Shown: piece by piece, positions 7,054-61,193 of the stretch
How the letters are laid out: each line of letters begins with the position of its first letter
Position numbering within the stretch: position 1 is the first letter of the stretch
Assembly (NCBI GenBank): GCA_038851075.1
Contig: JAWCLG010000003.1
Coordinates: 33,820-97,819 of the forward strand
From: Candidatus Hadarchaeales archaeon
GTDB taxonomy: Archaea > Hadarchaeota > Hadarchaeia > Hadarchaeales > Hadarchaeaceae
DNA: 64,000 nt
Direction: 5' to 3'
Position numbers and translations under genes: made by a program
Notes under the pieces: generated by a model
Database searches by the model: none
What the model was told of the DNA's origin: nothing
Seen by the model: the letters and a program-made list of their open reading frames with translations, nothing else

Positions 7054-7092
7054 CTCATCACCCCAAACCTGTAATCACTACTCCCTTAAAAC

Positions 7093-7524
7093 TCATACAA
7101 GTACCACATCTGAAAGGTCAAAGTATCTCTGCGCAAGCTTTTTTAACCCCTGAATCTTCCTGCCCTTTGTTCCTATCGCCATGCCTCTGTCACTCTTATC
7201 CACGGCGACCCTCGCAATTTTTCTGCCGTCTTTCTCCTGAACGTTTATCTCAATTATCTTCGCCGGGCTGAGAAAACTTCTGAATAGGTCTTCCATGTTG
7301 TCCGAATGCTCGACCACGTAAACGCTCTTCCCGATGACATGCCTGGCCTTCTTTATCCTGTCGCCGTTCTTTCCAATAGCTAGCCCCAGATTCCCTCTCT
7401 TCACTACGAACAGAATGCACTTTCCATCGTCTGAGATAACGCAGTCGTGAAGCCTCGCCCCGGTTAGTCCCTCAAAAAGCGTTATGTATCTCATTTCCTC
7501 TGCTGTGAGTTTTATGCCGCTCAT
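7093..7524 (-). CDS. nusA: NusA-like transcription termination/antitermination factor (two KH domains)
   Basis: 143 aa with KH-type GxxG elements (AIGKNGDRIKKA, AIGTKGRKIQGL) and the conserved position between L30e and S12. Confidence 0.85.
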   Translation of the reverse strand: MSGIKLTAEEMRYITLFEGLTGARLHDCVISDDGKCILFVVKRGNLGLAIGKNGDRIKKARHVIGKSVYVVEHSDNMEDLFRSFLSPAKIIEINVQEKDGRKIARVAVDKSDRGMAIGTKGRKIQGLKKLAQRYFDLSDVVLV

Positions 7525-7530
7525 TGACCT

Positions 7531-8986
<1,456 letters not shown>

Positions 8987-11623
8987 TCACGAACCCCCGA
9001 GAACCTGCTCTATTATCTTGTTCACGTTTACCGCTTTACCCTTGTCACTTTTAGCCGGATCGACGCCGTCCTCTCCGTAAACGAACTGCACGATCGCGCC
9101 TCGATCATCTCTGACAGTTCCATCGTACTCAACTCTGAGGTCCTGCAGCGCATTTATAAGGCGTCTCTGCATGTATCCGCTCTGCGCGGTTCTGACGGCC
9201 GTGTCCACAAGACCCTCCCTTCCACCCATGGCATGGAAGAAGTACTCGATAGGCTTCAGGCCGTCCTTATAGCTCGATCTCACAAAACCCCTCGCTCTGG
9301 CTCCGAGATCATCCGGCATGAAATGCGGGAGAGGACGCCTCCTGTAGCCTCTGCTCAGCCTCTCACCGCGAACGGACTGCTGGCCGACGCATGCTGCCAT
9401 CTGCGTCAGGTTAAGCATGCTGCCCCTTGCTCCGGTTCTTGCCATTATCACTGCCGGGTTGGTCAAACCGAGGTGTTTCTCTGCAACTTTACCGGACGCA
9501 TCCCTGCTCTCCGCCAGAACCTCCATTATTCTCATCTCCAGGGTTTCCCTCAGGGAGCGCCCGGGAATCGGTTCGAGTTCTCCGGCGTTATATATCTCTA
9601 TGAGCCTGTTGACCTTCTCCTCAGCCTCGTCCAGTATTTCGCTTATTCTTTCCTTGGCCTCGGGAGGAATGTCCTCATCGTCTATACTCGTGGTGAACCC
9701 GAACATCATTGCCGCGGCTATGGACAGCCTCGTGACCCTATCCAGAAATTCTCTCGCCGCATCGGGACCAAGGTCCTTTATTATTCTGTCAAGAATTTCG
9801 CATCTGTCAAGCGCCTTAAAGCTCTTCGCGTCAACAACTCCGCTGACAAGCTCCCCATCCTTTATAACCACATAAGCATCGATATCACACTCGGTCTCCT
9901 TACACTTTGAACAGTTCTCGCATATCTTGGCCTTGAAGACCATGTTCAACCCCTTTGGCAAAAGCATGCTGAATATCTGCTTCCCGGTCCAGTACTCCTG
10001 TCCCTTTTCCCTGACGGCTGGCTTTGGCAAATCAGAGAATACCCCGGCGTAAGCCAGCAGCTGATGGGCCTGCTCCCTGTTCAGAAGAGTTCCCCTCCGG
10101 GTAAGCATGTAAGATCCAGTAATGTGGTCCTGTATACCGCCGATGATCGGCCCTCCAAATCTGGGGGAGAGTATGTGCTCCTGCACCCGCATCAGGACTC
10201 TTGCCTCAACCCTCGCTTCCTCCGTCTGCAAAACGTGCATGTTCATCTCATCTCCATCGAAGTCTGCGTTGTATGGCGGGCACACGCTAAGGTTCAGCCT
10301 GAAGGTCCTGCCAGGAAGGACCCTTACCTCATGCGCCATAATCGACATCCTGTGAAGAGACGGTTGTCTATTGAACAGCACGATGTCTCCATCCTTCAGA
10401 TGTCTCTCCACCACGTAACCAGCTTCAAGTTTTTCCGCTATTTCCTCCCTTTCAGCATATCGCAGGTCGTATCTCTTGCCGTCCGGGCCAATGACGCTGT
10501 TGGCCCCGGGATAAACGTCGGGGCCCCTCCTGATATAGTTCTTCATCTCTTCAATGTTGAAATCGGTGACCCTCTCAGGAACCGTCATCTCCTTGGCGAT
10601 GTTTTCAGGGACCCCCACCTCATTTATTCCGATGTTCGGGTCAGGAGAAACAACCGTGCGCGCTGAGAAATCAACCCTTTTTCCGGAGAGATTTCCTCTG
10701 AATCTTCCCTCCTTTCCCCTGAGCCGCTGCGCCAGAGTTCTCAGGACCCTTCCGGACCTGTGTCTGGCCGGCGGAACACCTGAAATGCTGTTATCAAAAT
10801 AGGTGATTACGTGATACTGCAGCAGCTCCCACAGGTCCTCCACTATCAGGTGAGGCGCACCGGCCTCTATGTTCTCAGCCAGGCGCTGGTTTATCCTTAT
10901 GATATCAACCAGCTTATGCGTGATATCATCCTCAGACCTAACTCCTGATTCCAGCGTTATGCTGGGTCTCACTGTTACAGGCGGAACGGGCAGGACGGTG
11001 AGGACCATCCACTCTGGTCTGGCAACCTTGGGGTCCACGCCCATCAGCAATGAGTCCTCGTCGCTCAGCTTTTCCAGTCTCTCCCTGACATCACTCTGCG
11101 TGAGCCTGTTTTTGCCCTCTATGAAAGTTGTTGGCTTTTCGAATTTTATTTTCGCCTGTTTCTCCCCGCAGTGGGGACACTTTTCTGCAACCGTGGCGAT
11201 TTTGAGAACCTGTTCTGAAACAGACCACCATTTGCCTCCGCTTCTCTTCAGCTCATCCATCTGGTTCTTGAATTCGTCCAGCTTTTCCTGGGATACCAGA
11301 ACCCTGTTGCATTCCTTGTTTCTGCATATCGCCCTGAGAAAGTCGTATATCACTTCAACGTATCCAACGTGAATCACCGGTCGGGCCAGCTCAACGTGCC
11401 CGAAGTGTCCCGGGCATTTCCCGGCCCTTGCTCCGCATGTTCTGCACCTGAGCCCTGGATCAACAACTCCCAGCCTCATGTCCATAAGTCCTTTCTCGAT
11501 CGGGTAACCCTCTTCGTCGTATGTGTCCGCCGTCACAATTTTTGTAACGGACATTTTTCTTATGTCATCGGGTGACATCAGCCCGAAGTTTATGCTGTCT
11601 ATAACTTTTGGAATCCTCATCAT
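8987..11623 (-). CDS. rpoA1: DNA-directed RNA polymerase subunit A'
   Basis: 878 aa with the catalytic NADFDGDEMN motif and an N-terminal zinc ribbon CRTCGARAGKCPGHFGH. Confidence 0.97.
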   Translation of the reverse strand: MMRIPKVIDSINFGLMSPDDIRKMSVTKIVTADTYDEEGYPIEKGLMDMRLGVVDPGLRCRTCGARAGKCPGHFGHVELARPVIHVGYVEVIYDFLRAICRNKECNRVLVSQEKLDEFKNQMDELKRSGGKWWSVSEQVLKIATVAEKCPHCGEKQAKIKFEKPTTFIEGKNRLTQSDVRERLEKLSDEDSLLMGVDPKVARPEWMVLTVLPVPPVTVRPSITLESGVRSEDDITHKLVDIIRINQRLAENIEAGAPHLIVEDLWELLQYHVITYFDNSISGVPPARHRSGRVLRTLAQRLRGKEGRFRGNLSGKRVDFSARTVVSPDPNIGINEVGVPENIAKEMTVPERVTDFNIEEMKNYIRRGPDVYPGANSVIGPDGKRYDLRYAEREEIAEKLEAGYVVERHLKDGDIVLFNRQPSLHRMSIMAHEVRVLPGRTFRLNLSVCPPYNADFDGDEMNMHVLQTEEARVEARVLMRVQEHILSPRFGGPIIGGIQDHITGSYMLTRRGTLLNREQAHQLLAYAGVFSDLPKPAVREKGQEYWTGKQIFSMLLPKGLNMVFKAKICENCSKCKETECDIDAYVVIKDGELVSGVVDAKSFKALDRCEILDRIIKDLGPDAAREFLDRVTRLSIAAAMMFGFTTSIDDEDIPPEAKERISEILDEAEEKVNRLIEIYNAGELEPIPGRSLRETLEMRIMEVLAESRDASGKVAEKHLGLTNPAVIMARTGARGSMLNLTQMAACVGQQSVRGERLSRGYRRRPLPHFMPDDLGARARGFVRSSYKDGLKPIEYFFHAMGGREGLVDTAVRTAQSGYMQRRLINALQDLRVEYDGTVRDDRGAIVQFVYGEDGVDPAKSDKGKAVNVNKIIEQVLGGS

Positions 11624-32053: not shown

Positions 32054-33112
32054 ATGACCGTTTCCTCGATATACGTAATTTCTCCGGCGGAATGCTCAGG
32101 AAAAACCAGCATCATAGTTTCCATGGCCATCAAAGCGAGGGAACTCGGAAAAAGCGTCGGGTATTTCAAGCCGATAGGATACAGATCTCCGGTGGAACAG
32201 ACCGAAGAGCACATTGACGACGATGCAAAAAATATTAAGGAGATACTCGGCCTTGAAGAAGAACCAGATGTCCTGTGTCCAGTCGTTATCGACAAACAAG
32301 ATTTTTTGAAGAATATCTCGCAAAAAAATGAAATAAGAAAAAGAATAATCGAATGCTATAAAAAAGTATCTAAAGGAAAAGATCTGCTGCTCATCGAGGG
32401 TCCCCACTCAATTTCAGGGGGAATATCTATCGACTGCGCAGCACCGGATCTAGCCAGAGAGTTTGGCTCAAGAATAATAGTGGCAGCAAACGCAGAAAAC
32501 GACTCATTTATGGAGGAGCTTCTACTTACCGTAAAATTCTGCGAGAGGTACAGTATAACTCCTGCAGGAGCGATACTCAACAAGGTTTCAGATTACTATT
32601 CTGAAGTGGAGAGCGCGGTGAAATCTATTCTCGAAAAAGAGGGAATCGAGCTGCTGGGATCTATACCAAAGAACGAGATACTCGGCTCACCCCGGGTTCT
32701 TGAGATAGTCGACTCTATTGGCGGAGATATCATCGCAGGAAGAGAGGGTTTGGGCAACATCGTCCAAAACCTGATGATCGGGGCAATGTCTCTGGAAAGC
32801 GCGATGAAACATTTCCGCAAGAGCACAAAAAAGCTCGTGATAGTCGGCGGGGACAGAACCGACATCATCTCGGCGGCTCTGGAAACGGGGGCCTCCGCGG
32901 TTGTCGTCACCGGAAATCTCTACCCGAGTGTAAAGATACTGCCAAAAGCGGACGAGCTTAAAACACCGGTGCTGCTTGTCCCATATGACACCTACACGGC
33001 GCTTAGCATGATTCAAAAAATAGTTGGGAAGATAAAACCCAATGACAGAGCTAAAATTGACGTCATAAAAAAATTTGGAGCAAACATCAACTTGGATAAA
33101 ATCATGAACTAG
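32054..33112 (+). CDS. Pta-N-terminal-like protein: DTBS/CobQ-type P-loop domain plus DRTGG domain
   Basis: The SGKTSI P-loop with YFKPIG is followed by the DRTGG signature VIVGGDRTDIISAALETGASAVVVTG. Confidence 0.7.
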   Translation: MTVSSIYVISPAECSGKTSIIVSMAIKARELGKSVGYFKPIGYRSPVEQTEEHIDDDAKNIKEILGLEEEPDVLCPVVIDKQDFLKNISQKNEIRKRIIECYKKVSKGKDLLLIEGPHSISGGISIDCAAPDLAREFGSRIIVAANAENDSFMEELLLTVKFCERYSITPAGAILNKVSDYYSEVESAVKSILEKEGIELLGSIPKNEILGSPRVLEIVDSIGGDIIAGREGLGNIVQNLMIGAMSLESAMKHFRKSTKKLVIVGGDRTDIISAALETGASAVVVTGNLYPSVKILPKADELKTPVLLVPYDTYTALSMIQKIVGKIKPNDRAKIDVIKKFGANINLDKIMN

Positions 33113-35567
33113 AAAACTTTCTGGTACCAGCCCCTATCTCCCTGACAATCCTTCCAACGTTTTCTCTCGGATTGGACGAGTTATAAATCGCGCTTCCCGC
33201 TATGCATATGTCGGCTCCAGCGGCGACCACATCTCCAGCGACGCCTTCCTTTATGCCTCCGGCGACGGCCAGCAGAAAGTCTCCGGCAACTTTCTTTGCC
33301 TCCGATATGAGCTGCGCCTGTTCATATATTCCCCTGCCCTTCAGCTGCTCGCTTATTCCCCTGTGGATGCAGAAGATAACCCTGTTTTCATGACCCCCAA
33401 GGAGTTCCTTCAGCTCTCTCATAACATGCAACGGGTTCAAACAGTCTATGAAATCCACGAGAACCGCTCTGTCCCATCTTGTGGCCTCGCTGATCGCCTC
33501 CATTACCTTGGTCTTGCCCCCGATGGCCAGTACAGCTGACACGTCGGCCCCTGCTCTGAACGCTATTCTGGCTTCCAAGTTACCTACGTCCATGGTCTTC
33601 AGGTCAGCTACAATTATGGCATCCGGAGCGACCTTTCTGAGCGCCGGGATAAGACGATCGACTCCATGCCTTTTGACTGCTGGTGTGCCAGCCTCGATGA
33701 TACGTGCACCTCCAAGGTAAGCATCCTTCGCAACTGAGGAGATCGTTTCAATGTCTGAGTCCATATCCAGAGCGACCTGAAGCGCGGGAAGAGAGAGCCT
33801 CTCGATGGGGCTCAGAACGACCTCAAACTTCCTGGCAAACTGAACCCTCCTCAACCGCACTGGTTTCGGAACACCCTTGGTGCTCCATTCCCTCTCGGAA
33901 TAATAAGCTCTGATAAGCCCCCTAAGATCAATGCCAAAATCTCCCGGAAGCCTGTCATCCCCGGGCCCAAATTTTTCTCTGATGTTGAAAAGACGCTCTG
34001 TGTCATAAATGCGTGACCCGACATCGTGGAGATACTCTCCGGTCCACAGCATACCCGTGACCGCGGTCAGCGCCTTTGCCACATCGTCAAGCTCATAGTC
34101 AAGCGTTGCGAAAAGCGCGAATCCATGGTACTTGCATCCGATCATTGAATCGTAAACCGCAAAAGCATCCTGCATTCTCCTCACCAGCCTTGCCTTTCCC
34201 CTGTCTGATCTCGGGTCCACAAACTCCGGATTACTCAGTATCTCTGGTCCAATGGTATACGCACGGAGGTGACACGCCCCCCTATTTGATGTCGCATAAG
34301 CGAGTGCTATCCCTCTCGCGCCTCTTGGATCATATGCCGGAAGTTCAAGTCCCTTCACGATCGGTGCCAGCAGCCCCTTTACCCTCCCGATTTTTGCAAG
34401 TCCAAACGAATACTTTGACCTTCCACCCGCTATCTCCCTGATAAGTCTCCTCGCATCCTCGATTCCTTTTATTTCTTCAGCCTTCCTTGCGTATCCCAGA
34501 ATTCCGCCGACAGAAATCGCATCAAGACCCAGCTCATCGCACATCCTGTTGAGCTCCGAGATCTGTTCGTACTCATAAAATCCTGAATTCGGACCCAGCA
34601 TCACGATATTCTCGAACTCCGCGCCCTTACCCTCCCGCCCTCCGACATTGACCCATCTGCCGCAGGCCGTGGGACACGCGAAACAAGCGGTCTTTCTGAC
34701 GAGATATTTCTCCCGCACCGTCTCTCCGGAAAACGCGTCCACGTCATCAAAACTCAACCTTCTTCCAGAGAAGTTATCGTTTGGGAGCATGCCCGCGGCT
34801 GTTATCCTGTGAACCAGCAGCGCGGTTCCAAATCTGGCCAGGCTTCCATCGATTCCTGTGATGGGGTGCGTCTCAACTATCTTTCTGATCTTTTTCAGTA
34901 CTTTTTCAAACTCCCCGGGGTGCTCAACCCTTACCTTTTGGGTACCTCTCACAACCACCGCCTTCAGCCGCTTTGATCCCATAACCGCGCCCATACCGCA
35001 CCTTCCCGCAAATCCCTCCCTGCCGCCCTTTCCGGCGGTGTAAACGCACGCCATTCTCGCCAGATTTTCACCTGCAGGACCTATCGTCGCCACCCATGAA
35101 CCACCGTGTGAATTAAGAAGCTCGCTGCCAGCTTCCACCGTGCTTTTGCCCCAGAGTTCCCCTGCATCCTCAATCGAGACATTTTCACCATCCACTGAGA
35201 GATAAACGGGCTTTTTGGAGGCGCCTTCAAAAACGATACCGTCAAAGCCGGCCATCTTCAGGAAAGCACCGAACGACCCGCCCATCAGCGAATCCGCCAC
35301 GGTCCCTGTCAAAGGAGACTTTGAACAAACAGCGGTTCTGCCGGCTCCCGGATACGGAGTTCCGGTGAGGGGCCCTGTCATGAACACTATCCTGTTTACA
35401 GGACTCAGCGGATCGGTTCCGGGAGCAAGCTCATCGTAGAGCAGCTTTGCGGCGTACCCCCTTCCGCCAAGATAGTTGTAAGCCACCGAGAGGTCCAGCT
35501 TCTCAACTTCTGTTCGCCCTTCTGTGAGGTCAACGCGCAGAATCCTTCCCGCATAACCCCCGACCAT
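33102..35567 (-). CDS. Fusion protein: aldehyde:ferredoxin oxidoreductase (AOR family, tungstopterin) N-terminal ~590 aa plus 3-hexulose-6-phosphate synthase-like (OMPDC superfamily) C-terminal ~226 aa
   Basis: The AOR part has MVGGYAGRILRVDLTEG...YNYLGGRGYAAKLLY and the Cys cluster context CFACPTACGRW. The C-terminal part starts at LPALQVALDMD (nt 33782 downward) and continues with ADLKTMDVG and AVAGGI...AGSAIY, as in HPS. It is one uninterrupted ORF. Confidence 0.85.
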   Translation of the reverse strand: MVGGYAGRILRVDLTEGRTEVEKLDLSVAYNYLGGRGYAAKLLYDELAPGTDPLSPVNRIVFMTGPLTGTPYPGAGRTAVCSKSPLTGTVADSLMGGSFGAFLKMAGFDGIVFEGASKKPVYLSVDGENVSIEDAGELWGKSTVEAGSELLNSHGGSWVATIGPAGENLARMACVYTAGKGGREGFAGRCGMGAVMGSKRLKAVVVRGTQKVRVEHPGEFEKVLKKIRKIVETHPITGIDGSLARFGTALLVHRITAAGMLPNDNFSGRRLSFDDVDAFSGETVREKYLVRKTACFACPTACGRWVNVGGREGKGAEFENIVMLGPNSGFYEYEQISELNRMCDELGLDAISVGGILGYARKAEEIKGIEDARRLIREIAGGRSKYSFGLAKIGRVKGLLAPIVKGLELPAYDPRGARGIALAYATSNRGACHLRAYTIGPEILSNPEFVDPRSDRGKARLVRRMQDAFAVYDSMIGCKYHGFALFATLDYELDDVAKALTAVTGMLWTGEYLHDVGSRIYDTERLFNIREKFGPGDDRLPGDFGIDLRGLIRAYYSEREWSTKGVPKPVRLRRVQFARKFEVVLSPIERLSLPALQVALDMDSDIETISSVAKDAYLGGARIIEAGTPAVKRHGVDRLIPALRKVAPDAIIVADLKTMDVGNLEARIAFRAGADVSAVLAIGGKTKVMEAISEATRWDRAVLVDFIDCLNPLHVMRELKELLGGHENRVIFCIHRGISEQLKGRGIYEQAQLISEAKKVAGDFLLAVAGGIKEGVAGDVVAAGADICIAGSAIYNSSNPRENVGRIVREIGAGTRKFSSS

Positions 35568-46240: not shown

Positions 46241-47170
46241 CTAGCTCTTAACCCAATTAACCCAGTCAACATACCATTCAACATTAGGATTGCTGCCAGC
46301 CGTCGATATCATGAATGGACACCATATATACTGAAAGTCAACGTTCCTGAAGGCGCTCTTCGGGATAGTTATCTTCTCCCAGCCCCCGGTATTGGCCCAT
46401 CCATAGTTACCAATCCATACTTGGTTTGACTTTATACCTTTGTTGTCAGTAGTCAAATTCCAGCTCTGGAGCTCAACATGCAGATTCACGGGACTCTTTA
46501 CATAGAACTCTAAGGTGTCAACACCAGACAAGTCTATATAATGGGTTGCTGAGGGATCAATACCTCCTGGCATGCTGGAATTTGCCCCGACAAACACTCC
46601 CCATCCCGCGTACGCATTAGACTCCGGACCGTTTCGGGTGTACCAACAGGAAACTCCCTCAGGTATCCCGGAAACACCGGTATACTGCCCTTCAACATAA
46701 GGAGCGGTTAGACCGTACTCTCCCTCCTGTGGCCAAACAAATGCATCCACCTGAAGACCCAACTCCGGCAAAAGCCCGGCATCATTGAAAACCGCTATGT
46801 ACTCCCCAGCCGTACCGCCACCAACGGTTATGCTCCTTGAATAGGTATCACTCTGACCACCGCTAGATGTAACCGTCAATGTAACGGTATAGGTACCGGC
46901 AGAGAACTGGTGTGTTGGATTTCGGTCCGTGCTCGTGTTTCCGTCTCCAAAGTCCCATGACCATGAAACAATATCTCCGGTGGAAGTATCCGTGAACGCG
47001 ACATTCTGTCCAGCCTGCGGGTTAGAAGGGCTGTATGTGAAACTTGCATTCAGTCCACTTGGAGTACTTCCACCACCAGATGACAGAATCAAAGCAGCTG
47101 CGATAACTACAATTATAATTACCACGAGAATGATCACGACCGGAAGATTTAGCTTCCTTCCCCCACCCAT
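46241..47170 (-). CDS. Signal-anchored PKD-domain protein with C-terminal 'module A'
   Basis: The PKD signature is FTYSPSNPQAGQNVAFTDTSTGDIVSWSWDFGDGNTSTDRNPTHQFSAGTYTVTLTVT. The C-terminus carries AYAGWGVF...LEFYVKSP.NLHVELQ...GWEKITIPKSAF...WYVDWVNW. Confidence 0.65.
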   Translation of the reverse strand: MGGGRKLNLPVVIILVVIIIVVIAAALILSSGGGSTPSGLNASFTYSPSNPQAGQNVAFTDTSTGDIVSWSWDFGDGNTSTDRNPTHQFSAGTYTVTLTVTSSGGQSDTYSRSITVGGGTAGEYIAVFNDAGLLPELGLQVDAFVWPQEGEYGLTAPYVEGQYTGVSGIPEGVSCWYTRNGPESNAYAGWGVFVGANSSMPGGIDPSATHYIDLSGVDTLEFYVKSPVNLHVELQSWNLTTDNKGIKSNQVWIGNYGWANTGGWEKITIPKSAFRNVDFQYIWCPFMISTAGSNPNVEWYVDWVNWVKS

Positions 47171-47213: not shown

Positions 47214-47222
47214 TATTTAAAA
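47214..47222 (-). promoter_or_regulatory. Candidate TATA box of the 47170->42245 transcription unit
   Basis: The minus strand reads TTTTAAATA about 45 nt upstream of the ATG at 47170. An AGGTGGG Shine-Dalgarno-like element lies between them. Confidence 0.5.
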
Positions 47223-47230
47223 GCCTTTTG

Positions 47231-47253
47231 TCAATTTTTGGTCTGATTTTGAA
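47231..47253 (-). promoter_or_regulatory. Copy of the locus-specific YCAAAATNAG direct-repeat motif (candidate operator)
   Basis: The minus strand reads TTCAAAATCAGACCAAAAATTGA, versus GTCAAAATTAGCCCAAAATTAGG at 56246. It lies 9 bp upstream of the candidate TATA box. Confidence 0.55.
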
Positions 47254-47308
47254 AAATTGCAAAACAGGATATGCGTCTCATACCTCAGATTTGAAACATC
47301 AGTGCCAC

Positions 47309-48466
47309 TTACGGCTCATAAAAAATGTCGTCCAGATAAATCGTGGCTCCACCAGGATTGCTGGTGCTATTTGTAACCCAGCAGAACCCTCCGATAACGT
47401 TGCTAAGATCCTTCCCGCTGAGATTTATTGTGTACTGTCTCCAGTTATCAGAAAGCACTATCACGCCGGTTGAGACTGCAGGATAAATTGAATCACTATA
47501 TTCTTTTCCAGTTTCGCGTATTCCTCCGACCTTAAACTCCGCCTTCTCACCGCCGTTCTTCCCTCTTGCCCAGAATGTCAGCTTTGTCGTTCCAGTAAGA
47601 TCCTGACCGGCATAGTCTCCCCAGTTTCCTTCGGGATATTGCCAGTATATGCCAGACCATACTGAAGTTCCAGACGGGGTATATACTATCTTTATGCAGG
47701 TGTCGCCAGAGTGGGGATTATCTGTGGAAGAGGGGTCGTACTGTATATCCCCGATGACACCCATCCACCCAGAGGGTATGAACATGTCCTCCACAGAGTA
47801 AGTGGGTAACGAACTTATGGTGATCCTTTTGATTGCATTATCCATCAATCCGGAATTATCTATCACAGTGAGAACCACGCTGTAACTTCCAGGAGCACTG
47901 TAGGTGTGAGTGACCTCTCTGCCGGACCCGGTTGTACCATCTCCGAAATTCCAGCTGTAGCCAACGATAGATCCGTCCTCGTCATTGGAATTCTCTCCGC
48001 TGAAGAACACCTCCTCCCCCACCATTGCTGTGGAAGGTCCTGAAATTCTGGCCTCCGGTGGCTTTTCACTCGTACTTACGGTTATTCTGAAGGAAGATGT
48101 GACCTGACCACCTTTTCCATCCCTGACGGTAACCGTGATGTTGTATACTCCTGCTGACGGGGGAGTCCATACCAGTGTGTTTTCTGTATTCGAACTTATC
48201 TGCGGATCCTGCGAACAGCTCCACGTATAGGATAAGGTGTCCCCATCGAAATCTATCGCTTTCACTCCAATTGTAACTGGGGTCCCCGCCTGCGCTCTGT
48301 TATCCGGAGGAGCCTGCACCGACTGTATCTGCGGCGCTCTGTTCGTTGAAAATGTCGGGCCAAAAAAGGCAAGAACGATTCCTATTGAAACACCAATTAC
48401 GATACTCAAAACGACTAACAAAAGATAATTTCTCTGGTGTGGCATACTTTCCATATACTCCGTCAA
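47309..48466 (-). CDS. Signal-anchored protein with two PKD/Ig-like domains and C-terminal 'module B'
   Basis: The PKD signatures are YTWSCSQDP... and VGYSWNFGDGTTGSGREVTHTYSAPGSYSVVLTVID. The C-terminal SGWMG...GDTCIKIVY...WSGIYWQYPEGNWG...KLTFWARGKNGGEKAEFKVGG...GGFCWV...ATIYLDDIFYE is homologous to the GH26 protein C-terminus. Confidence 0.65.
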   Translation of the reverse strand: MTEYMESMPHQRNYLLLVVLSIVIGVSIGIVLAFFGPTFSTNRAPQIQSVQAPPDNRAQAGTPVTIGVKAIDFDGDTLSYTWSCSQDPQISSNTENTLVWTPPSAGVYNITVTVRDGKGGQVTSSFRITVSTSEKPPEARISGPSTAMVGEEVFFSGENSNDEDGSIVGYSWNFGDGTTGSGREVTHTYSAPGSYSVVLTVIDNSGLMDNAIKRITISSLPTYSVEDMFIPSGWMGVIGDIQYDPSSTDNPHSGDTCIKIVYTPSGTSVWSGIYWQYPEGNWGDYAGQDLTGTTKLTFWARGKNGGEKAEFKVGGIRETGKEYSDSIYPAVSTGVIVLSDNWRQYTINLSGKDLSNVIGGFCWVTNSTSNPGGATIYLDDIFYEP

Positions 48467-48960
48467 AACTTTTCACCACAGTTAAATTACTGAACTAAGT
48501 TTAAATATATTTTCAAAGATGTATGCAAAATTTTGGTCTCATACCACTGATGGGCTCTTGTCCTCAAGCAGAGCATTACTTCTCGGGCCCCCAACCAAAT
48601 GAAGAGGCTCGGCATGACCGCGGTACAGGCGCTCTTAAAAAACTAAACGGCATCGCTAGGTGATGCTGGCCAAACTCACAGCCGCGAACTCCCGCCTAAT
48701 TTTCTGCGGGACCCAAGGCGAAATTTATTTTTATGCACATTTGACTATTCTGGGGATTCAGATTAAGATAGAAGTCGCGAAAAAATCGTGGCTTACAAAT
48801 GATAAGATACGGCTGAAGTTGGTGTAAGAGTTTCAAGATTGAGGTAAAACTTCAACACCCTTTTAATTTGCACACTTCGGATTTTCTATTAGAACACCAA
48901 CAGCCGGACTCACATGTAAGTCAAATAAGGTAATAATAAAGAAAACAAAATATCTGGGGT

Positions 48961-49527: not shown

Positions 49528-50169
49528 TTAATAGCGAGTCCACCGGATATAATCAATGTAAAAAGTGACTGGAAAAACTGGTGTGCCTCCGTAAATCGTG
49601 CACATAAAAGGAGAAGTAACATTACTCAAATTGCTGGTGAAATCTGAAACCGGAATGGATATCTCCTGCCATTCAAAATCGCCGTTCCACCCGTAAGCAC
49701 TAATCCATTTGGAACATTTCATATCGGATGCGGTTATCTCAATCCTCAGATCTTTTCGAGTCAGGACCCAGAACTTCAGATGCCCTCCAGCATAAGGTGA
49801 CATGTCGCGCCCGTCCCAGAAGTAGCCCCAACCCGCTGAGTCCGAAGTTATGGTCTTAAAACATATCTGACCCTCAGGAACTCCAATTTCCCCACATTGT
49901 GAATTGAAGTAGCCTTCTCCCCACGTGTATATATGGCTGTTTGGACCCCAGCCTGCAAATCCTGCGTCGCTGTAAATCACAAACTCTTCAGGAGACGATG
50001 GTTCTGTGACATTAACTGTAAGAATTCCTCTGCCCACGATTATTGATGCAGCTGTATAACTCACTGTCAAAGACACGGCGAATACTAAAACTAGAAAAAG
50101 AAAACGGCCTAAAGACCTGAATGCCCCACGACCCCAGTCAGTTTTTTTTGCCAAACTCTTTGCCTCCAC
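49528..50169 (-). CDS. Signal-anchored stand-alone 'module A' protein
   Basis: 213 aa, consisting of an anchor plus FVIYSDAGFAGWG...PEGQICFKT...AGWGYF...LKFWVLTRKDLRIEI...WQEISIPVSDF...FYIDYIRW. This aligns with the C-termini of the 42245 and 46241 ORFs. Confidence 0.55.
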   Translation of the reverse strand: MEAKSLAKKTDWGRGAFRSLGRFLFLVLVFAVSLTVSYTAASIIVGRGILTVNVTEPSSPEEFVIYSDAGFAGWGPNSHIYTWGEGYFNSQCGEIGVPEGQICFKTITSDSAGWGYFWDGRDMSPYAGGHLKFWVLTRKDLRIEITASDMKCSKWISAYGWNGDFEWQEISIPVSDFTSNLSNVTSPFMCTIYGGTPVFPVTFYIDYIRWTRY

Positions 50170-50194
50170 TATTATATTTGCTTCCTCCTACAAT

Positions 50195-50230
50195 AAAAAA
50201 TAATTCAAAGCGGGAGATGAACTCTCCCGC
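50195..50230 (-). terminator. Hairpin plus oligo-T terminator-like element downstream of the 50253..50753 ORF
   Basis: A perfect 8-bp stem GCGGGAGA/TCTCCCGC with a 5-nt loop lies at 50210..50230. On the minus strand it is followed by TTTGAATTATTTTTT. Confidence 0.5.
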
Positions 50231-50252
50231 CGCTTGCATTGGGCAATCCCGC

Positions 50253-50753
50253 CTATTCCTGGTTGACGTCAAAGTACAGCGTTGACTGGAAGCCCTGCCC
50301 CACAGTATTGTAGTGGCCGACCTGTACCTTGAGTATAATGTAGCTGTTTCCACCGATGCTGAAGGTTCCATGAGACTGACCACCACTGTAGAGATCAGTT
50401 CCATCTAGTTTCCACACGTTCATCCATACTCTATCACCGCCGCCTGAGACGAACAGATTCGACATCACTGAGCTTCCGGTGTTCCTCAATTTGACATAGC
50501 AGGTCGCACTGGTTCCCTGGGGGATCTGCACGCTTGTTATCTCCTGGGTTGCATTCTGGTCGCTGTAGAATTTGACTTCTATAGCAGTGGGTGGCGCAAC
50601 AACCGTAATGCCAAGCGTTCCTTGACCAACTACCACGGATGCGGCCACATAACTGCCAGCTGCTGCAATTGCTATAAGGCTAACAAGAAGTGCTCCCACG
50701 ATCGCCCGAGAGGTGCCCCTTGCGCTGCTTTCCAGCAACCATTCATCACTCAT
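50253..50753 (-). CDS. Small signal-anchored beta-rich protein of unknown family
   Basis: 166 aa with a strong GGAGGT Shine-Dalgarno 8-10 nt upstream. After the TM segment, the motif SYVAASVVVGQGTLGITV is shared with the 49528 ORF (SYTAASIIVGRGILTVNV). Confidence 0.45.
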   Translation of the reverse strand: MSDEWLLESSARGTSRAIVGALLVSLIAIAAAGSYVAASVVVGQGTLGITVVAPPTAIEVKFYSDQNATQEITSVQIPQGTSATCYVKLRNTGSSVMSNLFVSGGGDRVWMNVWKLDGTDLYSGGQSHGTFSIGGNSYIILKVQVGHYNTVGQGFQSTLYFDVNQE

Positions 50754-50818
50754 TTTCTTTTACCTCCTTTTTTATTTTTTCGATTAAGTCTATGATAAAA
50801 ACATTTAATATGAGTTTA

Positions 50819-50880
50819 CCCTAATTTTGAGCTAATTTTGACAATTTTGGTTAATTTTGAAATAGTTTTGACGATTTCGA
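50819..50880 (-). promoter_or_regulatory. Phased array of about 5 YCAAAATTA half-sites (11-bp period) upstream of the 50753 start
   Basis: The minus strand reads CGTCAAAACTAT TTCAAAATTAA CCAAAATT GTCAAAATTAG CTCAAAATTAG GG. The last 24 nt differ at one position from GTCAAAATTAGCCCAAAATTAGGG at 56247..56270. Confidence 0.6.
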
Positions 50881-54856: not shown

Positions 54857-56098
54857 CTAATATTTTACCTGGCTTTTTACATGAGTAACGTTTCTAATAT
54901 TTTTTATCTCTTGCAAGATTGAAGGTGACTTTTCAAGAGCCACGCCCTTCATTATTTTTATATCATCCAACATGTGCCAATTGGTCTGACCGCCAGTGCT
55001 GGCTGAAAATCCGATTCCGTCATACGCTCGTTCTATTTTTCCGCTCCATTCCAGAACTTTATTCTCATCGATATGGACTGTCACAGCAGAGTCCTCAACT
55101 ATAACTTTTACATAGTGCCATTTAGAATCGACAACCCTGGGCTCTTCCACGTACTCAAGGTGATTTTTTGGATGGTTTTTGATAAGCGCAAGATGAGGAT
55201 ATGGAGGATCTCCGTAATCTACGTTTTGTACTCCATCAAACTCTATCCCATATCCTGGAATTGGAGCAACTCCAGACACAAAACCCAAGTTTCCACCGTC
55301 ACACGGCCAATAGTTTTTTTTCTTGTAAAACATGAAAACAAAACCATCGCCTCCACTACCGCCTCCGATCTTGTATTTGAAATCCGCAATGAATGGAGAT
55401 TTTATTCCTTTTTTAAGCCACATTATCCCGGCCTGCCATTCCTGATTTTTTGTGAGAACAACACATTTTTTAGAAATGTCATAATATGCATCGCGCACCA
55501 TAATCCACATCCTCTTATTAATATTGGTAGACTTTGCCTCAAGCAAAGATTGTACGTCAACTGTACCGCTTGAGATGTTGTTGATTATGTTTGTGTAGTT
55601 TATACGCAGCACTGGGGTTTCTCTTAATTGGAACGTTTCAAGTGTACAGACTCTTTTCATAAAATACTCGGAAAAAGATTCATTTTCTTTTGAGGATAAT
55701 ATATCTGGATCCTCCTCAGCCTTTGGGATGTATTTCAGATATGTGAGAAGATCGTTTATTTCCATTTCCTTAAACTCGCCATTTAGATCCTTGACTTTTA
55801 TTATTTCTCTGCCCAGCCTTTCTTTTATAGTTCGATATGCTGAAAGTCCCTCATCAGTAAGGAAATAAACATTCTTAAATCTGCCAGTGCTTCTTGAGAA
55901 TTTTCTGTCGTGCGCGACCAGTTTATTTTTTTCCAGTTCCTTTATGGTTGTTGATATTCGCTCCAGAGACATATTAATATTTTCAGCGATACCTGCTTGT
56001 GTCAAAGAATGAGGAAACTCATCATTATAACTCCTGACGATATCCCTATTGTCACCTAGATAGATGATTATCTTTTCATCTAACCGTATGGTTAACAT
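54857..56098 (-). CDS. Putative transcription regulator: N-terminal winged helix plus C-terminal L-type (legume-like) lectin / ConA-like domain
   Basis: The N-terminus LTQAGIAENINMSLERISTTIKELEKNKLVAHDR...YFLTDEGL is wHTH. The C-terminus aligns to L-type lectin blocks: GDGFVFMF (ADGxAFF), GGNLGF, GYGIEFDGVQN...DPPYPHLALIKN (VAVEFDT.QN..DP...HIGIDVN) and GIGFSASTGGQTNWHML (VGFSAxTG....H.I). There is no signal peptide or TM segment. Confidence 0.65.
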   Translation of the reverse strand: MLTIRLDEKIIIYLGDNRDIVRSYNDEFPHSLTQAGIAENINMSLERISTTIKELEKNKLVAHDRKFSRSTGRFKNVYFLTDEGLSAYRTIKERLGREIIKVKDLNGEFKEMEINDLLTYLKYIPKAEEDPDILSSKENESFSEYFMKRVCTLETFQLRETPVLRINYTNIINNISSGTVDVQSLLEAKSTNINKRMWIMVRDAYYDISKKCVVLTKNQEWQAGIMWLKKGIKSPFIADFKYKIGGGSGGDGFVFMFYKKKNYWPCDGGNLGFVSGVAPIPGYGIEFDGVQNVDYGDPPYPHLALIKNHPKNHLEYVEEPRVVDSKWHYVKVIVEDSAVTVHIDENKVLEWSGKIERAYDGIGFSASTGGQTNWHMLDDIKIMKGVALEKSPSILQEIKNIRNVTHVKSQVKY

Positions 56099-56175
56099 TA
56101 CACCCCTATTTTAATATATATTTCTCTCTTTTATTTAAATATTTTTCGCTTTAAAGTTTTTTAATTATTTTTTTT

Positions 56176-56185
56176 TAATTTTGGG
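56176..56185 (-). promoter_or_regulatory. Inverted half-site of the locus motif on the regulator side of the divergent promoter region
   Basis: The plus strand TAATTTTGGG equals CCCAAAATTA on the minus strand, so it is co-oriented with the regulator gene. Confidence 0.35.
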
Positions 56186-56244
56186 ATTTTTAAAAACCTT
56201 AAATTTCTAATTATTTAAAAAAATAATTTTTTTAATATCACTAT

Positions 56245-56270
56245 TGGTCAAAATTAGCCCAAAATTAGGG
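56245..56270 (+). promoter_or_regulatory. Locus motif copy 1 (candidate operator) in the regulator/GH26 divergent region
   Basis: TGGTCAAAATTAGCCCAAAATTAGGG contains two YCAAAATTAG units 11 bp apart. Confidence 0.6.
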
Positions 56271-56286
56271 CGTATTTACCAAAAAC

Positions 56287-56308
56287 TGGTCAAAATTAGC
56301 CCAAAATT
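56287..56308 (+). promoter_or_regulatory. Locus motif copy 2, exact 22-bp direct repeat of copy 1
   Basis: TGGTCAAAATTAGCCCAAAATT is identical to 56245..56266. The start-to-start spacing is 42 bp. Confidence 0.6.
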
Positions 56309-56369
56309 TACAAGGGTTAACATCCCTATTAAAAGCAAGTAGCAGTTGCTCGCGTCAGAATTCCCAAAG

Positions 56370-56377
56370 TTTAAATA
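56370..56377 (+). promoter_or_regulatory. Candidate TATA box of the GH26-ABC operon
   Basis: TTTAAATA matches the archaeal TTTAWATA consensus and is preceded by the purine-rich CCAAAG. It lies only ~19-31 nt from the possible starts (TTG 56396, GTG 56408), which suggests a leaderless or very short-leader mRNA. Confidence 0.5.
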
Positions 56378-56395
56378 AAAACAGGGACACCAGTA

Positions 56396-57976
56396 TTGAG
56401 GATTATCGTGGTAAACAAAAAAATCGTCTTGGCTACCGGGCTTTCGATAGCCGCGGTGATTATCGCTGTCTTCTTCATTCTTAACTTAGAAAAAAGGTGG
56501 TGGATCGAGGAAACCCGAGAAGATCAGGTTTACTTCGGTGCTTTCGTGCCCGGTGTTGAGGCATCAATTAAACTTCTTGATCAGCTTGAGAGCACTATCG
56601 GACAAAAGCTAACGATAATAAACACATTCCTGCCATCCAGCGCTGATTTTCCGGCCGAGTTCTGCGAACGCATAATCTACCACGGAGCAATACCCATGAT
56701 AACTTGGATGCCCCAGCCCAGAGACCCGAGCACCGAACACGGCAGAGTGCTGGACAGCATCGCCGGGGGCAACTGGGACAGTTATATAAGAAAATGGGCC
56801 GTGGATGCAAGAAACTTCGGTAAACCGGTGTACATTAGATGGGGGCATGAGTTCAACGGATACTGGTACCCCTGGAGCGTCCCAGCGAACGAAAACAGCC
56901 CCGATAAATTTGTGGCGGCATGGAAGCACGTTCACGACATATTTGCCAGAGAGGGTGCAACAAACGTCCAGTGGGTATGGTGCCCGTACCTGCGCAGCAA
57001 CCCTGATGAGGCGTGGAACGATCCACTGCTCGCATATCCGGGTGACGAGTACGTGGACTGGATCGGAATCGATGAGTACAACTGGGGATCAAGCTTCATA
57101 TGGAGCAACTGGCTTGAGTTCAGCGAGATCTTCTCGAACAAGGTGAGGATATTCAGCACGCACTTTCCGACAAAACCGATAATGATCGCCGAGGTCGGGT
57201 GTACCGAGGAAAATGAGCTACCGGGTCAGACGAAAGCCCAGTGGGTGAGAAACATGCTGGACTCTCTAAAGTGGATGACTCCAATACGTGCTGTTGTTTG
57301 GTTCAACTCATTTAAGGAAACAGACTGGCGCATGGAGTCGAGCGAAAGTTCTCTGGATGCTTTTAAAGAGATTTTTAGGGATGCGTACATAGCAGACGAT
57401 GCGAGAGGTCTCTGGAAGATCCCTGATAACTTCAGATCTGACCCGAACATATGGCCCACTTCAACAGTAAGGGCGGAGATGCCGTTCTACGTTTACGGAG
57501 ACAACGGTGGAAACTTTGCTGCCTCTGGGTGGATGGGGGACTACCAATCCATGACCCTTTCAGAGTACTGTACGGAAACCCCAGCTGTAGGAGACACCTG
57601 CATGAAGGTAAAGTACGACATAACAACCAGCAGGAAGGTCTGGGCAGGAATCTACTGGCAGAACCCGCCCAACAACTGGGGTAACGAAGATGGAGGATAT
57701 GACCTCTCAGATGCAACAAAGTTAGTATTCTGGGCCAGGGGCGAAAACGGAGGGGAAATTGTGAACTTCAAAACAGGCGGTATAAGCGGCAGTTACCCGG
57801 ACTCGGCTTTCGTCGTGCTCGGAACAATAACCCTGTCAAAAGAATGGCGAGAGTATGAGATTGACCTCAGGGGACACGATCTGTCATACATATCCGGTGG
57901 GTTTGTTTGGGTCGCCAAACAGGACCAGAACCCCAAGGGGTGCACGATATACCTAGACGAGATAAGATATGAATAA
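56396..57976 (+). CDS. Signal-anchored GH26-like glycosidase (mannanase/lichenase family) plus C-terminal 'module B'
   Basis: GH26 blocks are present: YIRWGHEFNGYWYPW (acid/base Glu), YPGDEYVDWIGIDEYNW and PIMIAEVGC (nucleophile Glu). The C-terminal ~160 aa are homologous to the 47309 ORF C-terminus. The start may be the GTG at 56408. Confidence 0.8.
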   Translation: MRIIVVNKKIVLATGLSIAAVIIAVFFILNLEKRWWIEETREDQVYFGAFVPGVEASIKLLDQLESTIGQKLTIINTFLPSSADFPAEFCERIIYHGAIPMITWMPQPRDPSTEHGRVLDSIAGGNWDSYIRKWAVDARNFGKPVYIRWGHEFNGYWYPWSVPANENSPDKFVAAWKHVHDIFAREGATNVQWVWCPYLRSNPDEAWNDPLLAYPGDEYVDWIGIDEYNWGSSFIWSNWLEFSEIFSNKVRIFSTHFPTKPIMIAEVGCTEENELPGQTKAQWVRNMLDSLKWMTPIRAVVWFNSFKETDWRMESSESSLDAFKEIFRDAYIADDARGLWKIPDNFRSDPNIWPTSTVRAEMPFYVYGDNGGNFAASGWMGDYQSMTLSEYCTETPAVGDTCMKVKYDITTSRKVWAGIYWQNPPNNWGNEDGGYDLSDATKLVFWARGENGGEIVNFKTGGISGSYPDSAFVVLGTITLSKEWREYEIDLRGHDLSYISGGFVWVAKQDQNPKGCTIYLDEIRYE

Positions 57977-59429: not shown

Positions 59430-61193
59430 GTGAAGAGAAACTTTTTACCCTACATCTTCATTTTACCTGCACTTGTCCTATTTCTGATGTTCTTCATATT
59501 CCCGAATGCCTACGTTTTCTATTTGTCGATGCACGAACTTGGTCCGAGCGGTGAGGCGCAGGAAAACTGCCTTACCAGCATTTACCCTCGATACCTGAAT
59601 GAGAACAACTTCTATCGGGCAGAGTTTGATATAAAATCCGGAATTTTTTGCCTGATGAGGATATACGAAGGAAACGAAGAAACTCTCATTTCTGACGGTT
59701 TTTCATCTGGTAGGGTCGGAACCTGGTACAAATTAAGGGTTGAGGTGATAAAAAAGGACAACGTCGATACGATAAGATCTTGGATAATCGGAATTGAGAA
59801 CGGATATAAAATCTTTGAAAACTCGTGCGCTCCGCTGAACCACGGCGGACTTGCCCTGTCAGCATATTTCAACAGGGATTTTACTGTGGTCTGGGACGAT
59901 CTCCGGATGATGGAATATCTCGAAGATAAGCCGAATGTGGCTTTTGGCGAAGAAACAAGTTCAGACATTGAAAACTGGGAAAGGAGCAGAACCATTGAAA
60001 TCGAGGGAACTGGTAAAGCACTGGAAAACTATCCGATCCAGTTCGATATTGAATGGCAGACAGACATGAGGGCTGACTTTGGAGATATCCGGTTTACGGG
60101 GGAAAATGGAGCCGAATTTCTGGACTACTGGATCGAGAGGTACTCGCGCGGTCAGCTTGCAACCGTCTGGGTGAAAATCCCATTATTGCCGGAGAACGGT
60201 ACCGCAATCAAAGTTCACTACGGCAACCCTGAGGCAACTTCATCAAGCGAGATTCGGAAAACTTTTGTATTCGGGGACGATTTCGAAGACGCCGCCTGGA
60301 CGAACGCCCACTTTGAGATGTCCGAATGTGAAGGGTGCTCGCAAGTGGCTGAAAACGGAGAATATGTGATGATGGGCAATGCTGGGTCTCTTGTGTTCAC
60401 CAATATAAACCTCCCAGAAATTCCTGAAAACATTGTTTTGGAGGTAAACGTGAAGTTGAAGAAGGTAGGCACAAGAGAATTTGGTCTTTCGTTCGTCGGG
60501 GCAAAAAATTTCTTGGAGCTATTCTCAGACAACATGTTTCTGATGTCTCTGCTTCTGGTCGCAGGCATAGCGATACAGTCCATAGTGGTGCAGGTCCCCG
60601 CGGGTCTGGGGCTCGCTCTTGCGCTGAGGAACATCAGGGGATCCCGCACTTTCCTAACCATATTCTTCCTCCCGATGACAATATCCCTCGTCACACTCTG
60701 CCTTATGTGGAAGTACCTCATATTCAGTCCTCAGGGCATTCTTAACTCAACCTTTGGGATGAGCCTCGACCCGACCAAAGATGCGTTCACGCTCTTCCTC
60801 GCGGTGAACATCATCGCGGACTGGATATATATTGGACTTTACACTGTGATGTTCAACAGCGCCATGAAAAGCATACCAAAATCTGTTTTTGACGCCGCCA
60901 AGGTCGATGGGCTCTCAGGATTCAAAACCCTTAGAAAGATAGTGATACCTGCCCTGAAGAACATCATTCTGGTATCGATAATAATGTGCATCTCCGGGAC
61001 TTTCAAAACATTTGACACGTGGTGGGTGCTGGGAGGAGGTCCGACCGCCCCGCTTCATCTGCCCTCAACCTATCTGGTGACAAAAATAGGGTCCGGTCTA
61101 ATAGGATATGCCTCAGCCATAGCTGTGATCAGTTTCTTCATATGTCTGGTCATAGTGCTAATCCAGCTGAAGGCGATGAAGGTGAAGGTATGA
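59430..61193 (+). CDS. ABC sugar permease (MalF/UgpA type) with a ~330-aa extracytoplasmic DUF2341/LamG-like insertion after TM1
   Basis: TM1 is YIFILPALVLFLMFFIFPNAYVFYLSM. The insertion contains ADFGDIRFTGENGAEFLDYWIERYSRGQLATVWVKIPLLPENGTAIKVHYGNPEA, a DUF2341 signature. The normal permease core then resumes at FVGAKNFLELF and carries the EAA-type loop AAKVDGLSGFKTLRKIVIP. Confidence 0.85.
   Translation: MKRNFLPYIFILPALVLFLMFFIFPNAYVFYLSMHELGPSGEAQENCLTSIYPRYLNENNFYRAEFDIKSGIFCLMRIYEGNEETLISDGFSSGRVGTWYKLRVEVIKKDNVDTIRSWIIGIENGYKIFENSCAPLNHGGLALSAYFNRDFTVVWDDLRMMEYLEDKPNVAFGEETSSDIENWERSRTIEIEGTGKALENYPIQFDIEWQTDMRADFGDIRFTGENGAEFLDYWIERYSRGQLATVWVKIPLLPENGTAIKVHYGNPEATSSSEIRKTFVFGDDFEDAAWTNAHFEMSECEGCSQVAENGEYVMMGNAGSLVFTNINLPEIPENIVLEVNVKLKKVGTREFGLSFVGAKNFLELFSDNMFLMSLLLVAGIAIQSIVVQVPAGLGLALALRNIRGSRTFLTIFFLPMTISLVTLCLMWKYLIFSPQGILNSTFGMSLDPTKDAFTLFLAVNIIADWIYIGLYTVMFNSAMKSIPKSVFDAAKVDGLSGFKTLRKIVIPALKNIILVSIIMCISGTFKTFDTWWVLGGGPTAPLHLPSTYLVTKIGSGLIGYASAIAVISFFICLVIVLIQLKAMKVKV

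Follow-up and report, generated by a model that had tools for sequence, protein, structure and literature searches.

Two identical 22-bp repeats lie between the divergent genes of a winged helix-turn-helix (wHTH) protein with a lectin domain and a glycoside hydrolase of family 26 (GH26) in a 64-kb stretch of archaeal DNA (hereafter, the window). With a probability of roughly 0.6, sequence comparison indicated that these repeats are the central part of a polar operator array, most likely made up of binding sites of the wHTH-lectin regulator, and that the array probably serves activation. The array is built from an 11-bp unit with the consensus YCAAAAT(T)AG, and pairs of units form a 22-bp module, T-C-AAAATTAG followed by C-C-AAAATT. 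The element is regulon-wide and far larger than the interval of 56176-56308 to which the first-pass annotation had assigned it. Judged by the genes that they precede, the arrays appear to mark a regulon for the utilisation of beta-mannan or beta-glucan, which would comprise GH26 with an ABC transporter, GH94, genes of the PKD/GH5-like type, a gene pair encoding proteins of 164 and 217 amino acids (aa), and MalK.

A protein of a Candidatus Hadarchaeales metagenome-assembled genome (MAG) matched the regulator encoded in the window at 100% identity, with P0001 as the identical cluster representative. Since the window comes from a Hadarchaeales MAG, the archaeal promoter logic of a B recognition element (BRE) followed by a TATA box is apt, and transcription starts were assumed to lie about 26 bp downstream from the centre of the TATA box. 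Related loci were taken from the contigs of regulator homologs with 44-59% identity to the window regulator; the comparison set consisted of the window lineage and nine other Hadarchaeales lineages, ten in all. The specificity of the arrays was assessed over the 64-kb window and about 110 kb of related loci. A search for the regulator protein in metagenome contigs gave one short locus, which was uninformative, and a contig scan with the pattern YCAAAATTAGNYCAAAATT, which was too degenerate, gave no Hadarchaeales among the matches listed.

The 22-bp modules and their units

Exact copies of the 22-mer TGGTCAAAATTAGCCCAAAATT were confirmed at 56245-56266 and 56287-56308 on the plus strand, with a start-to-start spacing of 42 bp. 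No match to this 22-mer occurred in any of 100 dinucleotide-preserving shuffles of the window, even when up to three mismatches were permitted. Copy 1 (56245..56266) consists of the units GTCAAAATTAG and CCCAAAATTAG, which are 11 bp apart and oriented toward GH26; copy 2 (56287..56308) consists of GTCAAAATTAG and CCCAAAATTTA. Two YCAAAATTAG units per copy had been described at first; this was correct for copy 1, whereas the second unit of copy 2 ends in TTTAC, not in TTAG. The spacer between the copies is 20 bp and itself holds one unit, a degenerate fifth one, TACCAAAAACT (56277..56287, plus strand), whose CAAAA core (56280) precedes the next core (56291) by 11 bp. The array with this fifth unit has the same 3+2 layout as the arrays of the related loci L133 and L129. 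No dyad symmetry was seen in the 22-mer, and its units are direct repeats.

On the regulator side, the inverted single unit CCCAAAATTA (TAATTTTGGG on the plus strand) was found, as previously reported, at 56176..56185 on the minus strand. It is directed toward the regulator gene and lies at about -75 from the inferred transcription start of that gene. Against 0.16 occurrences expected in 64 kb, the 10-mer has two, and both are within this intergenic region. L133, L129, and L006 lack its CAAAA core at the homologous position, and the unit may at best be a weak candidate site. Autoregulation through this unit, as suggested by the first-pass annotation, thus stays a possibility only, also because nearly all modules face away from the regulator gene (see below).

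Register, specificity, and polarity of the arrays

In 4.4 kb of intergenic DNA from all lineages, CAAAA cores on the same strand were 11, 22, and 33 bp apart 44, 17, and 8 times, respectively, against about 0.05 expected, and 44 of the 45 modules that scored at least 17 bits over all loci were oriented at the downstream target gene and away from the regulator; both counts are partly non-independent, with near-duplicates (L001-L003, L131/L132) and close relatives (L001, L004) among the loci. A spacing of 10 bp was found for two pairs, and the rest of the window contained a single 11-bp pair. The A4 tracts were preceded by C on their 5' side in 108 of 222 cases, compared with 25 of 94 in other AT-rich segments.

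A 24-bp position weight matrix (PWM) trained only on the lineages other than that of the window was used to scan the window, with 100 shuffles that preserved local composition as the null. The highest scores were 29.4 bits at 56246 (copy 1, the top match of the window), 26.5 at 56288 (copy 2), 25.6 at 50843, 24.2 at 47254, and 19.9 at 56277 (the module that starts with the fifth unit); the maximum in the shuffles was 17.2 bits. Only three other positions of the window reached 12 bits: 50832, within the 50.8-kb array, with 12.8 bits, and two positions inside coding sequence, with 13.9 and 14.6 bits. The negative-control DNA, 854 kb of loci from unrelated bacteria and archaea with single chance matches to the degenerate pattern, gave eight extra matches of at least 17 bits.

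A similar density of the motif in all AT-rich DNA would have spoken against a specific site. Among 27 AT-rich segments of the 64-kb window, phased 11-bp units were confined to 56.0-56.3, 50.7-50.95, and 47.2 kb, so that multi-unit arrays occur at three glycan promoters only; three further AT-rich segments had one or two isolated units each. Arrays were absent from the housekeeping part of the window (1-42 kb), with genes for RNA polymerase, EF-1alpha, NAD synthesis, topoisomerase VI, ACS, and AOR. Strong units were always upstream of BRE/TATA, and none lay downstream of any TATA box in the window. Over all loci, arrays were present at three to four promoters per genome in constant orientation relative to the gene.

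Arrays at two other promoters of the window

The array at 50820..50873 (minus strand) consists of five units, GTCAAAACTAT TTCAAAATTAA CCAAAATT GTCAAAATTAG CTCAAAATTAG, for which Tandem Repeats Finder (TRF) reported a period of 11. A near-copy of the 22-mer with two mismatches lies within it at 50823-50844 (minus strand). This array is upstream of the genes for two secreted proteins of 166 and 213 aa; it abuts GGGTAAAC-TCA-TATTAAAT, after which come a Shine-Dalgarno sequence and the ATG at which the 166-aa gene starts. Orthologous arrays precede orthologs of 156 to 176 aa in L001, L007, L008, L130, and L131.

The array at 47223..47254 (minus strand) has three units, TTCAAAATCAG ACCAAAAATTG ACAAAAGGC, abuts the TATA box TTTTAAATA (47214-47222), and lies upstream of an operon of a PKD-domain gene and two GH5-like genes (46241..47170, 44618.., and 42245..). 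The same module stands before the orthologous PKD gene in L001 (15030) and L004 (12525). At both promoters, CAAAA cores are located at about -48 and -59 from the inferred start, with more units upstream at 50.8 kb.

Conservation in other Hadarchaeales lineages

The 22-bp module was found in all nine other Hadarchaeales lineages, always beside an ortholog of the wHTH-lectin gene, and CAAAATT was the top 7-mer of the region upstream of the regulator in 10/10 lineages. The earlier proposal that these are regulator sites was therefore supported by a footprint in ten lineages; its arrangement as a dimer on inverted half-sites was not, because the units are strictly direct at 11 bp. The related loci contain one gene set in differing gene orders, and the targets of the module across lineages were GH26 with the ABC transporter, GH94, PKD/GH5-like genes, the gene of the 164-aa secreted protein, a gene for a solute-binding protein (SBP), and MalK.

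GH26 is the gene divergent from the regulator in the window, L133, L129, and L006, and all four intergenic regions contain the module twice. L133 and L129 each contain the 20-mer TCAAAATTAGACCAAAATTA twice, 31 bp apart, and in L006 the two copies are 28 bp apart. Despite an identity of only 72% between the regulators of L133 and L129 (P0002 and P0004), the 20-mers of the two loci do not differ. Alignment of the four regions showed that only the modules, the BRE/TATA of the regulator (CGAAAAATATTTAA), and the GH26 TATA (AAAGTT(T)AAATAARAAC) were conserved; the intergenic spacer differed in length and in sequence.

In L001-L004, L007, L008, L130, and L131, the divergent neighbour of the regulator is instead the 166-aa ortholog (47% identical in L001), at which arrays of four to seven units are oriented. 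In L004, the 164/217-aa pair has seemingly been lost: about 840 bp (6680-7520) carry no called gene, yet the unit array that elsewhere stands before the pair (7335-7371) is retained beside the regulator. A further observation concerns the GH94 module, whose first unit overlaps the 3' end of the regulator gene in L001 (11126-11149), L004 (8625-8648), L129 (1876-1899), and L007 (6238-6261), for example as CAC CAA AAT TAA, which encodes HQN*. The cis-element itself thus codes for the variable C-terminal tails of the regulators (…HQN*, …SQN*, …HQKHPKN*).

The wHTH-lectin protein as candidate binder

The regulator gene (54857..56098, minus strand) encodes 413 aa and is organized into a MarR-like wHTH domain (residues 1-125), a linker, and an L-type lectin domain (about residues 190-385). 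Pfam analysis showed weak matches of Crp/MarR/PadR type at the N-terminus and L-type lectin PF18483 at the C-terminus; MarR_2 was at the cut-off only in P0002 (30 vs 27 bits) and reached 16 bits in the window protein. The TrmB domain (PF01978) was undetected in the window regulator, and its best match (E=0.003) was below the cut-off and in the homolog P0002 only. No membrane segment was evident by eye.

The AlphaFold2 (AF2) model of the first 126 residues had a predicted local distance difference test score (pLDDT) of 88. The full-length model had an overall pLDDT of 67, with moderate values for the lectin domain. Foldseek searches with the N-terminus gave MarR/YodB-like folds, including MepR-DNA complexes (MepR, SlyA, and ZitR; E about 3e-4 to 1e-3, template modelling (TM) score about 0.5), and those with the C-terminus gave legume-lectin folds, including the M. 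jannaschii lectin domain 7elv. The DNA-binding domain carries an extra beta-hairpin and helix at residues 98-123. Compared with 14 homologs, the window regulator has an insertion of about 22 aa in the linker (about 127-150) and a longer C-terminal tail (385-413), two parts whose pLDDT in the AF2 model was below 50.

In 15 homologs, both the recognition helix (SLER[VI]ST) and the wing (GRF[RK]N) hardly varied. A nearly invariant helix and wing match an invariant YCAAAAT core, and on this basis we infer that the wHTH-lectin protein is the binder of the arrays.

The wHTH module (residues 1-126; window 55721-56098) has about 138 representative relatives at E<=1e-3. Ten of them, mostly the closest, were checked by Pfam; the module formed the N-terminus of STAND-type ATPase (ATPase_2/AAA_16/NB-ARC) proteins of 250-1100 aa, most of which had TPR. 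Recombination of this STAND-associated wHTH module with a lectin domain appears to be specific to Hadarchaeales.

Predicted core promoters of the divergent region

The GH26 core promoter is predicted at 56363..56380 (plus strand), with a BRE-like CCCAAAG followed by the TATA box TTTAAATAAAA (56370). This TATA candidate, already named in the first-pass annotation, was conserved, as L133 and L006 have AAAGTTAAATAARAAC at the homologous place. The regulator core promoter is predicted at 56129..56149 (minus strand), with the BRE GCGAAAAA followed by the TATA box TATTTAAATA; in L133 and L129, CGAAAAATATTTAAGT occupies the corresponding position, 34-36 bp upstream of the start codon. The identical 11-mer TTTAAATAAAA is present in both divergent core promoters in mirror orientation (56129-56139, minus strand; 56370-56380, plus strand), 230 bp apart.

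The conserved GH26 TATA is 62 bp downstream of modules 1 and 2, whose cores are at about -98 to -151 from the inferred start. A possible second GH26 promoter nearer copy 2, GGGTTAAC-N5-TATTAAAA at 56314-56336, resembles the 50.8-kb promoter; it was not conserved in L133 or L006 and was left as a possibility only.

Mode of regulation and alternative explanations

Archaeal activators bind upstream of BRE/TATA (PMC5937170; TrmBL1, PMC4706686), and the location of all strong units upstream of BRE/TATA predicts activation under this position rule. Activation had been favoured on the same ground before: the sites are indeed upstream of a conserved TATA box, but the distance of 62 bp at GH26 does not match that of the arrays which abut their TATA boxes.

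The identity of the binder, its stoichiometry, its ligand, and the sign of regulation are read from sequence in the following model. Regulator molecules would line up head-to-tail along one helix face, each on the next unit of the array; possibly, every 11-bp unit would hold a single protomer, every 22-bp module a pair, and every promoter two modules. The lectin domain, which would be cytoplasmic, may bind an imported manno- or cello-oligosaccharide and thereby control DNA binding or oligomerisation. Bound upstream of BRE/TATA and facing the target gene, the regulator would help to recruit TBP/TFB and so activate transcription; a bend in the DNA, to which the phased A4T2 tracts probably give rise, would assist in this.

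Several observations weigh against this model. MarR-like wHTH proteins normally act as dimers on palindromes, not on direct repeats. The GH26 array is farther upstream than is usual for sites of archaeal activators, whereas the arrays at 50.8 and 47.2 kb abut their TATA boxes. The GH94 gene of the window is without a strong module, and no array was found in the short upstream DNA searched in L005. Furthermore, the last degenerate unit overlaps the BRE position at 47223-47231 and 50813-50820, and in L001 and L004 a degenerate module covers the TATA and start of GH26.

Such degenerate units over the BRE or over the GH26 TATA also fit repression or dual control, and the arrays could be real operators that follow another logic, namely that of a sugar-released repressor, of a dual regulator (for example by occlusion of BRE/TFB), or of another factor encoded in the genome. 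The YCAAAA core also resembles the BRE of the clade (CGAAAAA, CCAAAG) and the Pyrococcus BRE consensus VRAAA, and MarR-like folds usually belong to repressors. The TrmB-type sugar regulators characterised so far are likewise mostly repressors (PMC4706686). On the other side, the strong conserved units are upstream of BRE/TATA in every case, and the linkage of array and regulator stayed constant through several rearrangements of gene order, which favours the wHTH-lectin protein as binder; we regard this alternative as unlikely.

It is much less probable that the arrays are intrinsically curved, phased A4T2 DNA that acts as a protein-independent promoter enhancer or as a chromatin-positioning signal. 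A-tracts of the CAAAATT type near the helical repeat are a known signature of static bending, and a phasing of 11 bp is present. However, the spacing is exactly 11 bp in 44 pairs against two pairs at 10 bp, positions outside the A-tracts are conserved (5' YC, 3' TTAG, and the alternation of TC and CC), and copies are identical over 20-22 bp within each genome. The arrays are also strictly polar and restricted to one regulon beside one regulator gene, whereas other AT-rich promoters of the window have none. The exact register, the conserved non-A positions, the polarity, the restriction to a regulon, the survival of rearrangement, and the linkage to the regulator together indicate an operator array and neither curved DNA nor a minisatellite.

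A non-functional local tandem duplication (an 11/22/42-bp minisatellite), a mobile-element remnant, or a mini-CRISPR-like repeat would account for the period-11 arrays of TRF and for copies that are identical within a genome and differ at one position between genomes (GCCC vs GACC), as after recent duplication or gene conversion, but these readings were rejected for reasons of context and conservation and have hardly any likelihood left, since the motif is kept at orthologous promoters of regulators 44-59% identical amid flanking intergenic DNA that cannot be aligned, recurs at three to four separate promoters per genome in the same orientation to the gene, and is surrounded by glycan enzymes and a transporter with no terminal inverted repeats, transposase, cas genes, or Rfam match. 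An RNA element was also dropped as a reading, as Rfam gave no match across 46-57 kb.

Comparison with known regulators

Like the regulator described here, TrmB and TrmBL1 of the Thermococcales are one-component regulators of archaea in which a wHTH at the N-terminus is joined to a sugar sensor at the C-terminus, and they are encoded beside the ABC sugar transporters and glycoside hydrolases that they control. For TrmBL1, the position of the site relative to BRE/TATA decides between activation and repression (PMC4706686). In contrast to TrmB, the sensor of the window regulator is a legume-lectin fold, and the operator is a polar array of direct repeats, not a palindrome. The Thermococcales glycolytic motif (TGM; TATCAC-N5-GTGATA) was rejected as a candidate operator, as it had only matches with two mismatches, five against 1.9 expected, which is chance level. 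One of them, TATCACTATTGGTCAAA at 56236-56252 (plus strand), overlaps the 5' edge of copy 1 and was absent from L133, L129, and L006.

TFB-RF1 controls an ABC transporter through a short palindrome, TCTG-N5-CAGA, and activates by recruitment of TFB/TBP at weak promoters (PMC5937170). The sites of upstream activators such as TFB-RF1 and Ptr2 are short palindromes located just upstream of BRE/TATA, and the 50.8-kb and 47.2-kb arrays are in the same position; unlike those sites, however, the arrays consist of two to seven direct units at 11 bp, and the GH26 array is 62 bp from its TATA. MarR, HxlR (YodB), and PadR were the closest structural matches of the DNA-binding domain. This likeness is one of fold only, with Pfam scores below or at the cut-off, and MarR operators are palindromic, whereas the units of the window are direct.

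In the bacterial OmpR/PhoB family, the winged helix binds direct repeats with an 11-bp period (pho box) head-to-tail upstream of the promoter and activates. A direct-repeat period of 10-11 bp upstream of the promoter is thus common to both systems. OmpR/PhoB proteins belong to bacterial two-component systems and have a receiver and a Trans_reg_C domain, neither of which was found in the window regulator by Pfam, so that the likeness is one of mode and not of homology. AraC binds the direct-repeat half-sites araI1-I2, two helical turns apart, and its gene is divergent from the sugar operon. As in the window regulator, a sugar-binding beta-sandwich is fused to a DNA-binding domain in AraC; the type of HTH, the domain order, the sensor fold, and the domain of life differ, and the AraC domain is absent from the window regulator. 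Phased A-tract DNA shares with the arrays A4T2 tracts near the helical period, whereas the arrays of the window keep exactly 11 bp, have conserved non-A positions, are polar, and belong to one regulon.

The wHTH-lectin system therefore belongs to none of the TrmB, TFB-RF1-type, OmpR/PhoB, and AraC families, and only the generic MarR-like fold is shared. A literature search found nothing on transcription factors with lectin domains in archaea, nothing on gene regulation in Hadarchaeota, including that of glycoside hydrolases, and no lectin-fold sensor among the characterised archaeal sugar regulators.

Gene content of the locus

The flanking genes were as originally described. GH26 (56396..57976, plus strand) was assigned by Pfam, is the first gene of the target operon, and is 70% identical to the divergent gene of L006; its true start is probably the GTG at 56408. 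The operon continues with the ABC sugar transporter genes, an SBP gene at 57969 and two permease genes up to 62077, and a MalK-type ATPase is encoded nearby. On the upstream side, the glycan locus contains GH94, genes for PKD-domain proteins and two GH5-like enzymes, and the pair of small secreted proteins.

This conserved pair (164-166 aa and 213-217 aa) is located at 49528-50753 (minus strand) in the window and at 8533-9731 (minus strand) in L001. Both proteins are secreted or membrane-anchored, matched no Pfam family, and are a core array target in most lineages. The 217-aa member of L001 had weak matches to CIA30 (E=0.008) and to a galactose-binding-domain-like family (E=0.09), hinting at a carbohydrate-binding module. 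In the first permease of the GH26 operon (59430-61193, plus strand), DUF2341 (residues 216-290) precedes BPD_transp_1; the L001 ortholog of 341 aa had only BPD_transp_1 listed.

A PKD gene (47309..48466, minus strand) is preceded by a TATA-like ATATATTTAAA and, about 25 bp farther upstream, by a single palindromic unit, GACCAAAATTTTG (48524..48536, minus strand). As a candidate this unit is weak, and it may mark an extra member of the regulon. Palindromic CAAAA(A)TTTTG junctions like this unit were also observed at the distal ends of arrays in L130 and L131.

Outside the glycan locus, an open reading frame (ORF) of 821 aa at 33102-35567 (minus strand) joins AFOR_N and AFOR_C (residues 7-575) to a domain of the OMP-decarboxylase/HUMPS family (595-806). 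From its domains, the ORF may be a fusion of AOR/FOR with hexulose-phosphate synthase that couples the release and the oxidation of formaldehyde.

Significance for Hadarchaeota

Nearly all Hadarchaeota are uncultured. Their genomes suggest a life mostly on sugars and amino acids (PMC10811742). The locus described here is a complete, testable module, with an 11-bp unit, a 22-bp module, at least three target promoters per genome, and a candidate regulator, and the motif can be used directly for regulon prediction in any Hadarchaeales MAG. Even if the arrays were merely the sites of a local regulator, they would provide a clean regulon inference by comparative genomics, with no conceptual surprise.

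Beyond this, we tentatively propose, at somewhat less than even odds, that the system represents an undescribed class of sugar-sensing factors, in which a MarR-like wHTH joined to a cytoplasmic lectin domain would form a head-to-tail polymer on 11-bp arrays, and in which the length of the array (two to seven units) and its distance from BRE/TATA would set the output of the promoter. If this is true, a lectin fold would sense the ligand inside the cell, and the grammar of the operator would be filament-like and based on direct repeats instead of the typical archaeal palindrome. The polar, direct-repeat grammar of the arrays adds to a repertoire of archaeal operators that is mostly palindromic.

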